64,000 nt of DNA from a virus: the IMG/VR virus record IMGVR_UViG_3300005821_000002, positions 1 to 64,000 of that record. One strand, 5' to 3'. The notes under the pieces were generated by a model. That model saw only the letters and a list, made by a program, of their open reading frames with translations, was not told where the DNA came from and made no database searches. Made by a program: the position numbers and the translations under genes. The stretch's first letter is position 1. The number at the start of each line of letters is the position of its first letter. Positions 38,187-44,716 of this stretch are shown piece after piece.

Positions 38187-38187
38187 A

Positions 38188-38262
38188 GGTGCTTGCAGAG
38201 GGGCTCGAACCCCCGACCTTCGGTTTAAAAGACCGTTGCTCTTCCGGCTGAGCTATGCAAGC
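38188..38262 (-). tRNA. tRNA-Lys(UUU)
   Basis: Cloverleaf, loop CTTTTAA; ends ACC-T. Confidence 0.9.
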
Positions 38263-38732
38263 TAAAAAACTAATTGAGTACCTATCTCTAGGTCCATTGT
38301 ATACCAAGCGCTGTAGAACCATGGTGCCTTCTTCCCCGTAAAGTCTATTCTACGTGATGGGAAGATAACTTCCACACCACTCAACTGTGCTCTACATTCT
38401 TTTGCACCTAACTTTGTTATAGGTAGCAACATGCACCAAGGTTTTCCCAACTCATTTGCTCTACGTAGAAACTTCTTAGCTATAGAGAATGGTGGGTTGG
38501 TTACAATGATATCATAGGATGGTGGTTCATCAACAAGAAAATCTCCATCCCATTCTACTACATCGTAACCACCTGCGATAAGGTGTGCTATCAACACACC
38601 AGAACCAGGTGCACAATCCCACAGCTTTTTGTCTGTGGGTAGATACGGAACCAATACCTCCAAAGCCTCTGGAGGAGTCCATATATCGTCGTAACTTCCT
38701 CTTTTACTGTAATCCTTCAATACTTCTAACAT
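38262..38732 (-). CDS. Small amino-DNA methyltransferase-like protein (paralogue of 32079)
   Basis: WTPP, WDCAPGSG, VTNPPF, RRIDF. Confidence 0.75.
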   Translation of the reverse strand: MLEVLKDYSKRGSYDDIWTPPEALEVLVPYLPTDKKLWDCAPGSGVLIAHLIAGGYDVVEWDGDFLVDEPPSYDIIVTNPPFSIAKKFLRRANELGKPWCMLLPITKLGAKECRAQLSGVEVIFPSRRIDFTGKKAPWFYSAWYTMDLEIGTQLVF

Positions 38733-38808
38733 GGTGCCACCGGTAGGACTCGAACCTACAACCTTTGGTTTAAGAGACCACTGCTCTCACCCGTTGAGCT
38801 ACGGAGGC
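38732..38808 (-). tRNA. tRNA-Lys(CUU)
   Basis: Loop CTCTTAA; CCA encoded. Confidence 0.9.
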
Positions 38809-38812
38809 ATAA

Positions 38813-38901
38813 GACGGCGACGTTCCCACAACGCCTTCGTGCAACCTAAGTGAGTGGCCTACTCACAGCTACACAGTTGGATTCGAACCAACATCTCCGT
38901 C
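38813..38901 (-). ncRNA. Circularly permuted tRNA-like RNA (YrlA-like topology)
   Basis: GACGG/CCGTC closing stem, then T-arm GTTGG-TTCGAAT-CCAAC, closed acceptor-like stem, D-like arm. Confidence 0.7.
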
Positions 38902-38902
38902 A

Positions 38903-38978
38903 GGTGGGTCTGGCTGGGCTCGAACCAGCGACCTCTTTCTTGTAAGGAAAGCGCTCTAACCAACTGAGCTACACACCC
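38903..38978 (-). tRNA. tRNA-Val(UAC)
   Basis: Loop CTTACAA. Confidence 0.9.
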
Positions 38979-38979
38979 A

Positions 38980-39171
38980 TTATCCTGTTAATCTACCTTT
39001 ACCATCATTCTGATAGAAACCCTTACCCTTAAATACGACGTTAGGAGGATTGAACACTCTCCTAATACTTATTTTACCACATTCAGGGCATTTTGTCAAG
39101 CCCAAATCCAAGTGTTCTTCGGATATGAACTCATACAAACAATCTTCACATTTGTAATCATATATTCCCAT
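38980..39171 (-). CDS. FmdB-family zinc-ribbon protein
   Basis: YDYKC..C, CPECG, FKGKGFY. Confidence 0.85.
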   Translation of the reverse strand: MGIYDYKCEDCLYEFISEEHLDLGLTKCPECGKISIRRVFNPPNVVFKGKGFYQNDGKGRLTG

Positions 39172-39182
39172 AGTTACCTCAA

Positions 39183-39256
39183 GGAGCGAGTAGGTGGATT
39201 TGAACCACCGACATTCTGCTTGGAAGGCAGACGTTCTACCACTGAACTATACCCGC
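39183..39256 (-). tRNA. tRNA-Gly(UCC)
   Basis: Loop CTTCCAA. Confidence 0.9.
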
Positions 39257-39259
39257 TAA

Positions 39260-39332
39260 GGTGGGAACACAGGGAATCGAACCCTGCTCGTCGGCTTGAA
39301 AGGCCGGTGTCCTGCCGATAGACGATGCTCCC
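39260..39332 (-). tRNA. tRNA-Glu(UUC)
   Basis: Loop CTTTCAA. Confidence 0.88.
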
Positions 39333-39515
39333 TTATGAAACCATACTCTGAATGCTATCTAATAAGTCATTCAGTTCATCGTACTTGTCTATTAAACTTT
39401 CTACAGCCTCATATGCATTTTTATCATCTACTATAAAATCTACTGGTGAGCCTGGTCCATTTAATAAATCTACGATATCTTGTAGTTCTGCTTCTATACT
39501 TATACCCATAATCAT
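39333..39515 (-). CDS. Small acidic hypothetical protein
   Basis: AAGGAG RBS; fills the gap between two tRNA-Glu genes. Confidence 0.6.
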   Translation of the reverse strand: MIMGISIEAELQDIVDLLNGPGSPVDFIVDDKNAYEAVESLIDKYDELNDLLDSIQSMVS

Positions 39516-39525
39516 ACTCCTTTTA

Positions 39526-39599
39526 GGTGATTCTACGGAGATTTGAACTCCGGTCTGTACTTTGAGAGAGTACTGTCCTAACCACTAGACGATAGAACC
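39526..39599 (-). tRNA. tRNA-Glu(CUC)
   Basis: Loop CTCTCAA. Confidence 0.88.
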
Positions 39600-39601
39600 A
39601 A

Positions 39602-39675
39602 GGTAGGCCCCCCACGAATTGAACGTGGCTCCTTCCCCTTATAAGAGGGATGCTTCCCCGATCAGCTTGAGGCCC
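39602..39675 (-). tRNA. tRNA-Ile(UAU)
   Basis: Loop CTTATAA; anticodon stem identical to tRNA-Ile(GAU). Confidence 0.8.
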
Positions 39676-39943
39676 ATCGTGTTTCATTATTTTCTACTCG
39701 TTTTATCCAATTACAATTTGCACAAAGTAGTTGATAGTCTTCACTTTCTCCCCTACAAATTCTACGAGCTATATAATCGGAACTATGAGCAAGTATTTCT
39801 TTACCACCGCCACCTTTTATATGATCTATCTGTAATGCTCTTGGATCGGAAAATCCACATCTTGTGCATATACCACCCAAAAGCTCTATCGCTTTCTGTC
39901 TATTTTTTCGACGGTATTCTCTACCCCATTGTTTTTTATTCAT
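39662..39943 (-). CDS. HNH endonuclease (homing type)
   Basis: C..CG, LQIDHI, LLCANCN. Confidence 0.85.
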   Translation of the reverse strand: MNKKQWGREYRRKNRQKAIELLGGICTRCGFSDPRALQIDHIKGGGGKEILAHSSDYIARRICRGESEDYQLLCANCNWIKRVENNETRWASS

Positions 39944-39944
39944 A

Positions 39945-43438: not shown

Positions 43439-43476
43439 ATATTCCCCCTATATTATATTGTCCGTACCATACCAAA

Positions 43477-43566
43477 GGCGGAGAGTGCAGGGGTCAAACC
43501 TGCAAGGCAGTTACGCTCGGCGGGTTTCAAATCCGCTGCCGTCGTCAACTATCGGCTTGACTCTCC
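43477..43566 (-). tRNA. tRNA-Ser(UGA)
   Basis: Loop TTTGAAA, long variable arm; divergent D and T loops. Confidence 0.75.
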
Positions 43567-43606
43567 GAAATGTGGGGAAGTTAGGTTCCGACCTCCCTTC
43601 CCAATA

Positions 43607-43690
43607 GGTGCCGATAACAGGAGTCGAACCTGTACGCTGTTAGGCGGTTGCTTTTGAGGCAACTGTGTCTACCTCTTCCACCATATCGGC
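43607..43690 (-). tRNA. tRNA-Leu(CAA)
   Basis: Loop CTCAAAA. Confidence 0.9.
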
Positions 43691-43782
43691 AATTGTCTTA
43701 CCGTACCCATAGGCAATACTAGGCTTGTAGGCCCTATGGGTATTGCTCAATCATGAGGTATATAGTCATGAAAGAGTGCCTA

Positions 43783-43860
43783 GGCGGTCTTGAAGGGATT
43801 TGAACCCTCGATCTCTTGCTTGACAGGCAAGCGTGTTAGGCCGGACTACACCACAAGACC
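43783..43860 (-). tRNA. tRNA-Asp(GUC)
   Basis: Loop CTGTCAA. Confidence 0.9.
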
Positions 43861-43864
43861 ATAA

Positions 43865-44016
43865 GATGTATCATAGCTGGTTTCCCCACCCAGCACCCGT
43901 ACAAACCTGACCATTTTTCGGTTTTTTAGTCTGACCGATACAGACTTGTGACCTTTCTGAAAAGGTTGTCAGGATGAATTCTAAGCCCAAGTGTTTCAGA
44001 CACTTTATGATACATC
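43865..44016 (-). ncRNA. Unassigned multibranch pseudoknot RNA
   Basis: 11-bp terminal stem GATGTATCATA/TATGATACATC; several inner helices; H-type knot TCGGT/ACCGA. Confidence 0.65.
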
Positions 44017-44017
44017 A

Positions 44018-44093
44018 TGGGGTGTCCAGAGGGGTTCGAACCCTCGAATGTGGATTCACAGTCCAGTGTTTTTCCGACTAAACTATGGACACC
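44018..44093 (-). tRNA. tRNA-His(GUG)
   Basis: G-1/C73, loop CTGTGAA, CCA encoded. Confidence 0.88.
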
Positions 44094-44098
44094 ATGTA

Positions 44099-44262
44099 TG
44101 TACCGGTACCCCTCTTACTCACCGTATTACGATGATATAACTACCTCTGGAGACCCAGTAGGGGCAGGTAGGCGGTATTTTCTCTTCCTTATTCCTAGCT
44201 GGTCTTAATCAGAATAAGGCGTAGTCTCCCACGTTCTGTCCATGCCAGCGGACACCGGTACA
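44099..44262 (-). ncRNA. Unassigned multi-pseudoknot RNA
   Basis: TGTACCGGT/ACCGGTACA terminal stem; pairings GCTGG/CCAGC, GGAGAC/GTCTCC, CCCCT/AGGGG. Confidence 0.65.
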
Positions 44263-44263
44263 A

Positions 44264-44336
44264 GGTAGCTAAGGGAGGATTCGAACCGCCATCCTAGGCT
44301 TCAAAGGCCCATGTCCTGCCGTTAGACGACTTAGCT
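44264..44336 (-). tRNA. tRNA-Gln(UUG)
   Basis: Loop CTTTGAA. Confidence 0.85.
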
Positions 44337-44339
44337 ATA

Positions 44340-44412
44340 GGTTGTAGAGGAAGGATTCGAACCTCCATTGACTGATTCAGAGTCAGCAGTACTGCCGTTA
44401 TACTACTCTACA
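44340..44412 (-). tRNA. tRNA-Gln(CUG)
   Basis: Loop CTCTGAA; U1-A72. Confidence 0.88.
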
Positions 44413-44563
44413 AGGTAAAGGCGTATTCCAACCCCTTTATTCCGCCTATAAGTCCTGTCTGTATTCACAGCGTTTTCCTTGAAACTAGACCTGACTAGAA
44501 TTCCAAGGACGTAAGGGGTACAGGACTTGGCTCATAACCTTTCCCCACTCTTTCGAGTGAGAA
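44413..44563 (-). ncRNA. Unassigned pseudoknot RNA
   Basis: AAGTCCTGT/ACAGGACTT, CCTTGGAA/TTTCAAGG, knot ACCCCTT/AAGGGGT, 5' GAAA hairpin. Confidence 0.6.
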
Positions 44564-44636
44564 GGCACGGGATGAAGGATTCGAACCTCCTACAGTAACG
44601 TTTTGGAGACGCACTCGCTCCCAAGCTGTATCCCGC
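44564..44636 (-). tRNA. tRNA-Trp(CCA), reduced D-arm
   Basis: Loop CTCCAAA; G73. Confidence 0.75.
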
Positions 44637-44641
44637 ATATA

Positions 44642-44716
44642 GGCAGGCAAGACAGGATTCGAACCTGTAACCTTCTCCTTAACAGGGAGTTGCTCTGCCG
44701 ATTGAGCTACTCGCCT
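44642..44716 (-). tRNA. tRNA-Asn(GUU)
   Basis: Loop CTGTTAA; G73. Confidence 0.88.

Follow-up and report, generated by a model that had tools for sequence, protein, structure and literature searches.

The window analysed here is the first 64,000 nucleotides (nt) of the IMG/VR record IMGVR_UViG_3300005821_000002, a complete viral record of 96,486 bp with direct terminal repeats of 104 bp. On the minus strand of the window, at 38188..44716, lies an array of 27 tRNA genes that covers all 20 amino acids according to ARAGORN and of which Rfam recovers 26. Two further RNA genes are embedded in this array on the same strand: a short transfer-messenger RNA (tmRNA) of 251 nt (41551..41801, Rfam score 77.8 bits) and a putative mini ribonuclease (RNase) P RNA of approximately 200 nt (42496..42698). 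Most of the tRNA genes share one type of 3' end, in which the discriminator base is followed by the first two bases of the CCA terminus and then by T. This ending, its conservation and its possible role in tRNA maturation are the subject of the present analysis.

The 3' ends of the tRNA genes

The position of the discriminator base (N73) was set from the 7-bp acceptor stem of each gene. C74-C75 was present in 27 of 27 tRNA genes, and position 76 was T in 23 of them (NCC-T) and A in the remaining four (NCC-A), G and C being found in none. Complete CCA is encoded, always on the minus strand, by tRNA-Lys(CTT) (38732..38808), tRNA-Leu(TAA) (40675..40760), tRNA-Cys (42698..42772) and tRNA-His (44018..44092), the last of which also has an encoded G-1 facing C73. 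In tRNA-Cys, A76 (position 42698) doubles as the first aligned base of the P1 stem of the adjoining RNase P RNA, and its orthologues in two related phages (G005 and G008, described below) end in TCC-T. An earlier note on this DNA had described 24 of 28 tRNA genes as ending in NCC-T; the pattern stands, with the count corrected to 23 of 27 and no 28th canonical tRNA found. The same note had limited CCA to the Lys(CUU), Leu(UAA), Cys and His tRNAs and the tmRNA, had stated that position 76 is never G or C and had read NCC followed by T in a tRNA-like RNA at 51508. The same four genes were found, the 3' end of the tmRNA reads CCA, position 76 is G or C in 0 of 27 genes of the array, and the tRNA-like RNA ends in ACC-T.

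The T at position 76 is not the result of chance or base composition. T makes up 27.7% of the non-coding spacers of the array when read in the RNA sense; against this value, T in 23 of 27 genes has a binomial p of 7.5e-10, and p is 1.8e-10 when the composition of positions 77-80 is taken as the reference. At position 77 the array has 11 A, 14 T and two G, and later positions are mixed. Nine junctions between a tRNA and the next RNA are just 2-5 nt long, consist of U and A only and start with U (TT, TTA, TAA, TTT, TAT, TATAT). On the 5' side, the leaders have U at -1 in 17 of 27 genes and A at -2 in 19 of 27, and bacterial RNase P is known to prefer U at -1.

Mis-registration of the 3' ends by ARAGORN was considered and rejected, as 25 of the 27 acceptor stems pair at 7 of 7 positions and the initiator-like Met tRNA has a U1-U72 mismatch. 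This tRNA, the sole Met(CAT) of the array (40854-40929, minus), carries the mismatch at the top of its acceptor stem; it is initiator-like, yet it does not have the usual bacterial C1-A72, and the same U1-U72 mismatch recurs in a Met(CAT) tRNA of a relative (L026 533-608). The array also contains gaps of 150-450 nt on the minus strand with no called open reading frame (ORF) or tRNA (38979-39182, 39333-39525, 39676-39944, 42047-42495, 43861-44017, 44093-44263 and 44413-44563), which may hold more processed RNAs.

The tmRNA begins 2 nt (TT) past tRNA-Arg(ACG). In the arrays of relatives, elements of 78-87 nt (L026 2244-2321, L023 9712-9795 and L022 2090-2176) span the tmRNA model from one end to the other at 40-48 bits, its whole middle being deleted, and these may be mini tmRNAs made of the tRNA-like domain only, or odd tRNAs. 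The orphan tRNA-like element (51506..51591, or about 51508-51590, minus) is located between a dnaB-like gene and the next ORF, and was called by neither ARAGORN nor Rfam. It folds as a cloverleaf in which the anticodon arm is over-long, next to a 7-bp acceptor stem, a D arm and a T arm, and its end reads ACC-TT. A terminator-like hairpin precedes it.

Conservation in related phages

The relatives used for comparison were IMG/VR records with tRNA arrays, retrieved through alignment of homologues of the DNA polymerase PolA, with PolA identities of 42-57%. Protein search shows closer PolA homologues, 75-87% identical (P0122, P0124, P0126 and P0127); the comparison covers the records at 42-57%. 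In G005 (57% PolA identity), 12 of the 20 tRNAs scored were NCC-T, two were NCC-A and six had other ends (NC-T/A), and in G008 (45%) the 12 tRNAs scored were divided into nine, two and one. No NCC-A was seen in the other two relatives: half of the 20 tRNAs scored in G007 (42%) were NCC-T and ten were of other types, and in G006 (44%) two of 12 were NCC-T and ten were other, mostly NC-T.

When the genes of the phage family were combined, the base following NCC was T in 57 and A in eight of 65 genes, with no G or C. Genes in which one C is followed by a base other than C (n = 27) had T next in 20, A in seven and G in none, and the relatives also have three N-U genes. The rule in this family is a U behind one or two templated Cs. 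The ratio of T to A is 57:8 after CC and 20:7 after a single C, which is not a significant difference (Fisher p 0.13), therefore it is 'U first' that looks selected, and not 'anything but A'.

Position 76 is also distinct from the base that follows it. Within the NCC genes of the family, the comparison of position 76 with position 77 gave a Fisher p of 4.5e-8, A and U being equal at position 77 (27 vs 27). Among 35 orthologous NCC pairs, each comparing the phage with a relative, position 76 agreed in 77%, as against 29-43% for positions 77-81, and tRNA bodies of the same length are approximately 69% identical between orthologues. The first trailer base is therefore under purifying selection. 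The earlier note had proposed that U76 is selected, with position 76 in related phages as the check. The base is not random there, and the proposal is borne out by its conservation across relatives and its rarity elsewhere. The set of tRNAs with full CCA varies among the relatives, and the full-CCA cases look sporadic.

Rarity in other arrays

The background consisted of 80 IMG/VR loci, each seeded on one NCC-T tRNA, from which 214 other tRNAs were counted. Their ends were NCC-A (61), NCA (55), NCT (38), NT (22), NCG (16), NA (10), NCC-T (5), NCC-G (5), NCC-C (1) and NG (1), so that NCC-T makes up about 7% of the NCC genes in the background vs 88% in the phage family. Among well-known phages, T5 encodes CCA in 22 of 23 tRNA genes, XacN1 in 27 of 27 and T4 in four of eight, the last with no NCC-T. 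Other IMG/VR arrays (loci L071-L150) show dominant 3' signatures of their own, for example NCA in 15 of 22 genes of L098 and NCG in eight of 20 of L078, and L088 is given as another example, the third signature being CCA in 14 of 15; this suggests that array-specific 3'-trailer signatures (NCA, NCG, NT, NCC-T) are common in phages. The literature searched yielded no description of phage tRNA genes that template CC or CCA only in part, nor did the sources searched describe a set of natural genes that systematically end in CC-U.

A mini RNase P RNA in the array

The RNA gene at 42496..42698, directly after tRNA-Cys, matches the RNase P RNA model RF00010 end to end (58.9 bits, E 2.5e-17) with the specificity domain (S-domain) missing. 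It has the type-A catalytic domain, including P1-P5, P15-P17, J18/2 and both P4 strands. The score is under the 100 bits of the Rfam gathering threshold, and about 140 S-domain positions of the model are absent; an Rfam scan at that threshold misses the gene, which is found with a permissive scan. It is homologous to the catalytic domain of RNase P RNA and is predicted to work like it, but is not a full-length member of class A.

Homologues at the same position, directly after tRNA-Cys, are present in G005 (47.3 bits) and in a more diverged form in G008, where the copy was missed by both the RF00010 search and permissive cmscan and was exposed by alignment. More homologues were found via the P4 motif in two unrelated phage records, G013 (67.2 bits) and G014. 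These phage RNase P RNAs (that of the window and those at L021 1712-2008, L024 ~3440-3712, L063 4724-4940 and L064 ~8130-8350), from at least two unrelated phage lineages, are approximately 170-300 nt long, have a type-A catalytic domain without the S-domain and score below the Rfam gathering threshold. In a five-sequence alignment, compensatory changes were seen in 20 of 34 predicted pairs, among them four pairs of P4 in G008; taken together, the changes affect P1, P4, P5 and P15-17. The literature searched contained no account of an RNase P RNA encoded by a phage.

In bacterial RNase P RNA, the GG of L15 pairs with C75/C74. In the phage RNA, the 3' side of L15 has the sequence UGGUU, located between P16 and the P15 3' strand. 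GG is thus kept as the partner, as it is in five of the five aligned sequences. Contact of these two Gs with the 3'-CCA of tRNA is assumed in the literature (PMC1874595). The whole motif is UGGUU in this phage (G000), G005 and G008, the tRNAs of which are mostly NCC-T, GGGUC in G013, where 21 of 23 tRNAs have CCA, and GGGUU in G014, which has no NCC-T. Therefore GG(U) is found in L15 of all of them, and the L15 base opposite nucleotide 76 changes together with nucleotide 76, in two lineages only. On the substrate side, as in the substrates of type-A RNase P, C74-C75 would be single-stranded in the precursors of 27 of 27 genes. The earlier note had assumed that CC is kept for recognition by RNase P; the phage's own type-A-like RNase P RNA, with GG(U) preserved in L15, strengthens this, and pairing may be the selective reason for CC.

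Processing enzymes and candidate hosts

The earlier note had also suggested looking for an RNase Z or a nucleotidyltransferase in the rest of the genome. A six-frame profile search of the whole 96,486-bp record, with positive controls, found neither: there was no match to class I or II nucleotidyltransferases (PF01743, PF01909) at E <= 1, and none to an RNase Z-type metallo-beta-lactamase (PF12706), an RNase T-family exonuclease (PF00929) or RnpA (PF00825). A Pfam scan of 40 ORFs also gave no RNA 3'-end enzyme. As the phage has no recognised 3'-end enzyme, removal of the trailer and addition of A76 would fall to the host or to an unrecognisable phage protein.

A homologous structural gene is present on contigs binned to two metagenome-assembled genomes (MAGs) of a phylum with genomes of 0.4-2 Mb, one Acidimicrobiia MAG and one 'Shapirobacteria' record. 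For three MAGs (G010, G011 and G012), the host link consists of the binning of short contigs with GC content matching the bin, and they are candidate hosts only. Each of the three carries one gene of the PolyA_pol family (PF01743), so the split CC- and A-adding enzymes that had been proposed for the host find no support in these candidate bins. In all of their sampled tRNA genes C74 is encoded, and the base after NCC is A or C, never T. G010 and G011 (loci L027 and L029-L059) are titled 'uncultured Gammaproteobacteria' but are placed in the phylum with sampled genomes of 0.4-2 Mb, and are probably Patescibacteria despite the NCBI label; in their sampled tRNA genes C74 is mostly followed by T or A. 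A T-loop-plus-NCCT pattern, searched for in 401 genomes from the candidate host phylum, gave up to seven matches per genome, near the reversed-pattern control, and no NCC-T-rich genome was found among them. The 401 include one unpublished genome (G168, 1+1 matches), on which no claim rests.

Other features of the phage record

Coding density is normal under table 11, and the phage uses the standard genetic code; an alternative code was rejected on this basis. Pfam matches include a family-A DNA polymerase, DnaB, RecA, ribonucleotide reductase, two DNA methylases, a GH25 lysin and an SLT-domain protein. The presence of RecA, DnaB, the tmRNA and peptidoglycan hydrolases indicates a bacterial host. 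Between positions 12000 and 28500 of the window there is a block of ~30% GC, compared with ~38-45% elsewhere, and genes for an amidoligase and a glutamine amidotransferase are located inside it.

No match to the tRNA array was found by megablast among GenBank phages. Several studies of marine sediment and the subsurface contain near-identical DNA in their metagenomes, and a cold-seep run has a variant that differs at many sites. No RNA run was listed among the sequencing runs with this DNA; the four compared (two of DNA and two labelled metatranscriptomic, though probably DNA) gave contigs, in which neither molecule ends nor a non-templated A was seen. Single-protein searches for related loci with the SLT protein, DnaB and a primase-like protein found nothing, and the relatives reached via a structural protein were fragments of the structural module without tRNAs.

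Discussion

The tRNA genes of this phage family carry partially templated CCA ends, and the phage encodes a ribozyme with the L15 GG but no recognisable nucleotidyltransferase or RNase Z, a combination that points to maturation being split between phage and host. From the conserved and elsewhere rare pattern of the ends we infer the kind of nuclease that removes U76, the pairing of CC with L15 as the reason for keeping CC, and a host enzyme as the source of A76. The reading that we favour, tentatively and with somewhat less than even confidence, is that CC is kept for RNase P, that U76 is the start of a trailer cut by a uracil-sensitive 3' nuclease of the host and that A76 is provided by the host CCA enzyme.

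The array would be transcribed into multi-tRNA precursors, in which the C74-C75 templated throughout would serve as single-stranded partners of the L15 GG in RNase P RNA. This contact should weigh more than usual because the phage ribozyme lacks the S-domain, the usual reader of the T/D-loop elbow. U76 would be the first trailer nucleotide, and a cut by RNase P at the start of the next RNA, often only 2-5 nt on, would leave tRNA-NCC-U(W)n. The U-initiated tail could then be removed by a host nuclease of the RNase Z or RNase BN type that prefers, or is activated by, uracil. The two Cs would stop further trimming, and the host CCA-adding enzyme would supply A76 alone. As T is encoded at position 76 in 23 of 27 genes, their A76 has to be added after transcription, which is forced if the tRNAs are functional.

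The step in which U76 acts as a cleavage signal has precedents. According to PMC10100781, a U no more than 2 nt beyond the discriminator stimulates RNase Z of Bacillus subtilis approximately 200-fold, with trimming back afterwards, and PMC7479834 reports that RNase BN/Z of Escherichia coli removes the ends of tRNA-CA, -CU and -CCU (Asha 1983). Published uracil activation and RNase BN activity make the step plausible by analogy. In the relatives, the NC-U (20) and N-U (3) genes have their U within 2 nt of the discriminator.

Several observations weigh against this reading. In the phage itself, the U of the 23 genes is at +3 from the discriminator, and never at position 74 or 75, so the B. subtilis rule of U within 2 nt is not followed. 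C74 and C75 are anti-determinants for B. subtilis RNase Z, and a classical RNase Z might not cut NCC-U at all; substrates of the B. subtilis type have no C74-C75, and here CC is present in 27 of 27 genes. The part played by the phage ribozyme can also be questioned. C74 is kept in approximately 85% of background viral tRNA genes, even where C75 and A76 are not templated, and in all sampled tRNA genes of the three MAGs, which have no phage ribozyme; a phage RNase P is therefore not needed for keeping C. Furthermore, the records of G006, G007 and G009, which are incomplete, gave no sign of a mini RNase P RNA, though ten of 20 tRNAs in G007 are NCC-T.

The main rival, which we regard as rather unlikely, is that the Cs act as a stop for exonucleases. 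Host 3' exonucleases would chew the short A/U trailers left after cuts by RNase P and an RNase E-type enzyme, stall at CC, and A76 would be added; U76 would not be read by anything and would merely be the easiest base that is neither C nor able to pair. The nine junctions that leave 2-5 nt of pure U/A agree with this, as do trailer positions 76-77 being nearly all U/A and the widespread retention of C74, and tails this short need no endonuclease. RNase T is reportedly blocked by a terminal CC. However, the marked deficit of A relative to U at position 76 (8 vs 57), when the two are equal at position 77, is left unexplained by a trailer that is merely passive, and so is the conservation of position 76 between orthologues, which is as strong as that of the tRNA body. 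RNase T, moreover, favours purines and is limited to a few proteobacterial groups.

A second possibility, which we consider doubtful, is co-evolution of ribozyme and substrate: the phage mini RNase P would read U76 via the L15 base 5' of GG, and the CCU end would mark phage precursors as opposed to mature or host tRNAs ending in CCA. It is equally improbable, in our opinion, that the L15 base opposite nucleotide 76 went from G to U together with a shift of nucleotide 76 itself from A to U, the CC-U ends and the S-domain-less RNase P having co-evolved. Such a link would fit the occurrence of UGGUU in the three mostly NCC-T phages and of GGGUC or GGGUU in the two others, and a ribozyme without the S-domain must lean more on contacts with the acceptor end. 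However, with two lineages only, the co-variation is anecdotal, U opposite U is not a Watson-Crick pair, and with U at this L15 position the mature A76 would pair better than the U76 of the precursor. The NC-U and N-U genes of the relatives also obey the U-first rule without CC, and in G007, with half of its tRNAs NCC-T, no ribozyme was found in the incomplete record.

It is highly unlikely that dependence on A addition is itself what was selected, with U76 kept so that charging awaits the A-adding step of the host, either for control of timing or in a host with split enzymes. The earlier note had proposed that maturation is made to depend on this step. The dependence follows from the sequence, as 23 of the 27 tRNAs need A76 to be added post-transcriptionally and the phage has no nucleotidyltransferase. 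Separate CC- and A-adding enzymes are known in several bacterial phyla (PMC7014341, PMC3925840), but each of the three MAGs holding contigs of relatives has a single PolyA_pol-family gene. The similar T:A ratios after CC and after a single C speak against this explanation too, and no phage regulator or enzyme that points to control of A addition was found. Finally, a signature without function, either inherited in an array copied from an NCC-T donor or due to a local bias of A/T-rich spacers, is already disfavoured and very improbable: lineage-specific signatures are common in other phage arrays (such as those of L098 and L078), but T76 persists at 42-57% PolA identity while positions 77-81 have decayed to 29-43% identity, spacer composition does not account for it (p ~1e-9) and none of the 401 genomes of the candidate phylum is NCC-T-rich.

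If the favoured reading, with RNase P holding CC and a host nuclease cutting at U76, is true, the sequence of the gene itself assigns CC to RNase P, the first trailer base to a 3' nuclease and A76 to a nucleotidyltransferase. The array would then be a natural set of substrates for studying how a minimal RNase P chooses its substrates and whether RNase Z-type enzymes are able to cut after C75. If ribozyme and tRNA ends have co-evolved instead, a viral minimal RNase P would know its own precursors by the 3' end alone, and tRNA maturation would be largely self-contained in the phage, only trailer removal and A76 being borrowed from the host. Array-specific 3'-trailer signatures might serve as a fingerprint of the host machinery.

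Comparison with known systems

Bacteria with split enzymes (Aquifex, Deinococcus, cyanobacteria and others) resemble the phage in having a tRNA-NCC intermediate that needs A only, but no evidence of such enzymes is seen here, each candidate host bin carrying a single gene of the PolyA_pol family. In the substrates of the uracil-activated RNase Z of B. subtilis (Pellegrini et al. 2012, as summarised in PMC10100781), the first U past the discriminator is a conserved feature of the trailer, as it is here; in contrast, the phage U is at +3 behind CC, and the cut would fall after C75 and not after N73. The action of E. coli RNase BN on tRNA-CCU and -CU is similar in that a wrong residue after the Cs is removed so that A can be added, although it was shown on artificial substrates in E. 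coli (Asha et al. 1983, cited in PMC7479834). The contact between RCCA and L15 (GGU) in type-A RNase P is matched in the phage by C74/C75 templated throughout, GG(U) in L15 and frequent leaders with U-1, but the phage RNase P RNA differs in being phage-encoded, in lacking the S-domain and in having U, not G, 5' of GG.

The closest parallel is T4. It has been known since T4 that phage tRNAs may be without an encoded CCA and need RNase BN/Z and the CCA-adding enzyme of the host, as the T4 tRNAs for Pro, Ser and Ile do. In both phages the tRNA genes are clustered with very short spacers and some are without CCA, there is no phage CCA enzyme, and 3' trimming and the nucleotidyltransferase are host functions in T4, as they would be here; as in T4, the full CCA is untemplated in part of the genes (23 of 27) and there is no phage tRNA nucleotidyltransferase. 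However, four of the eight T4 genes are without CCA and have unrelated bases instead, whereas here CC is present in all genes, U76 in 85% of them and the rule extends across the family, and T4 has no RNase P RNA. What is new in comparison is a uniform rule of keeping CC and then placing U, under purifying selection throughout a whole uncultured phage family and rare in other arrays, next to a phage RNase P RNA that consists of the catalytic domain only.

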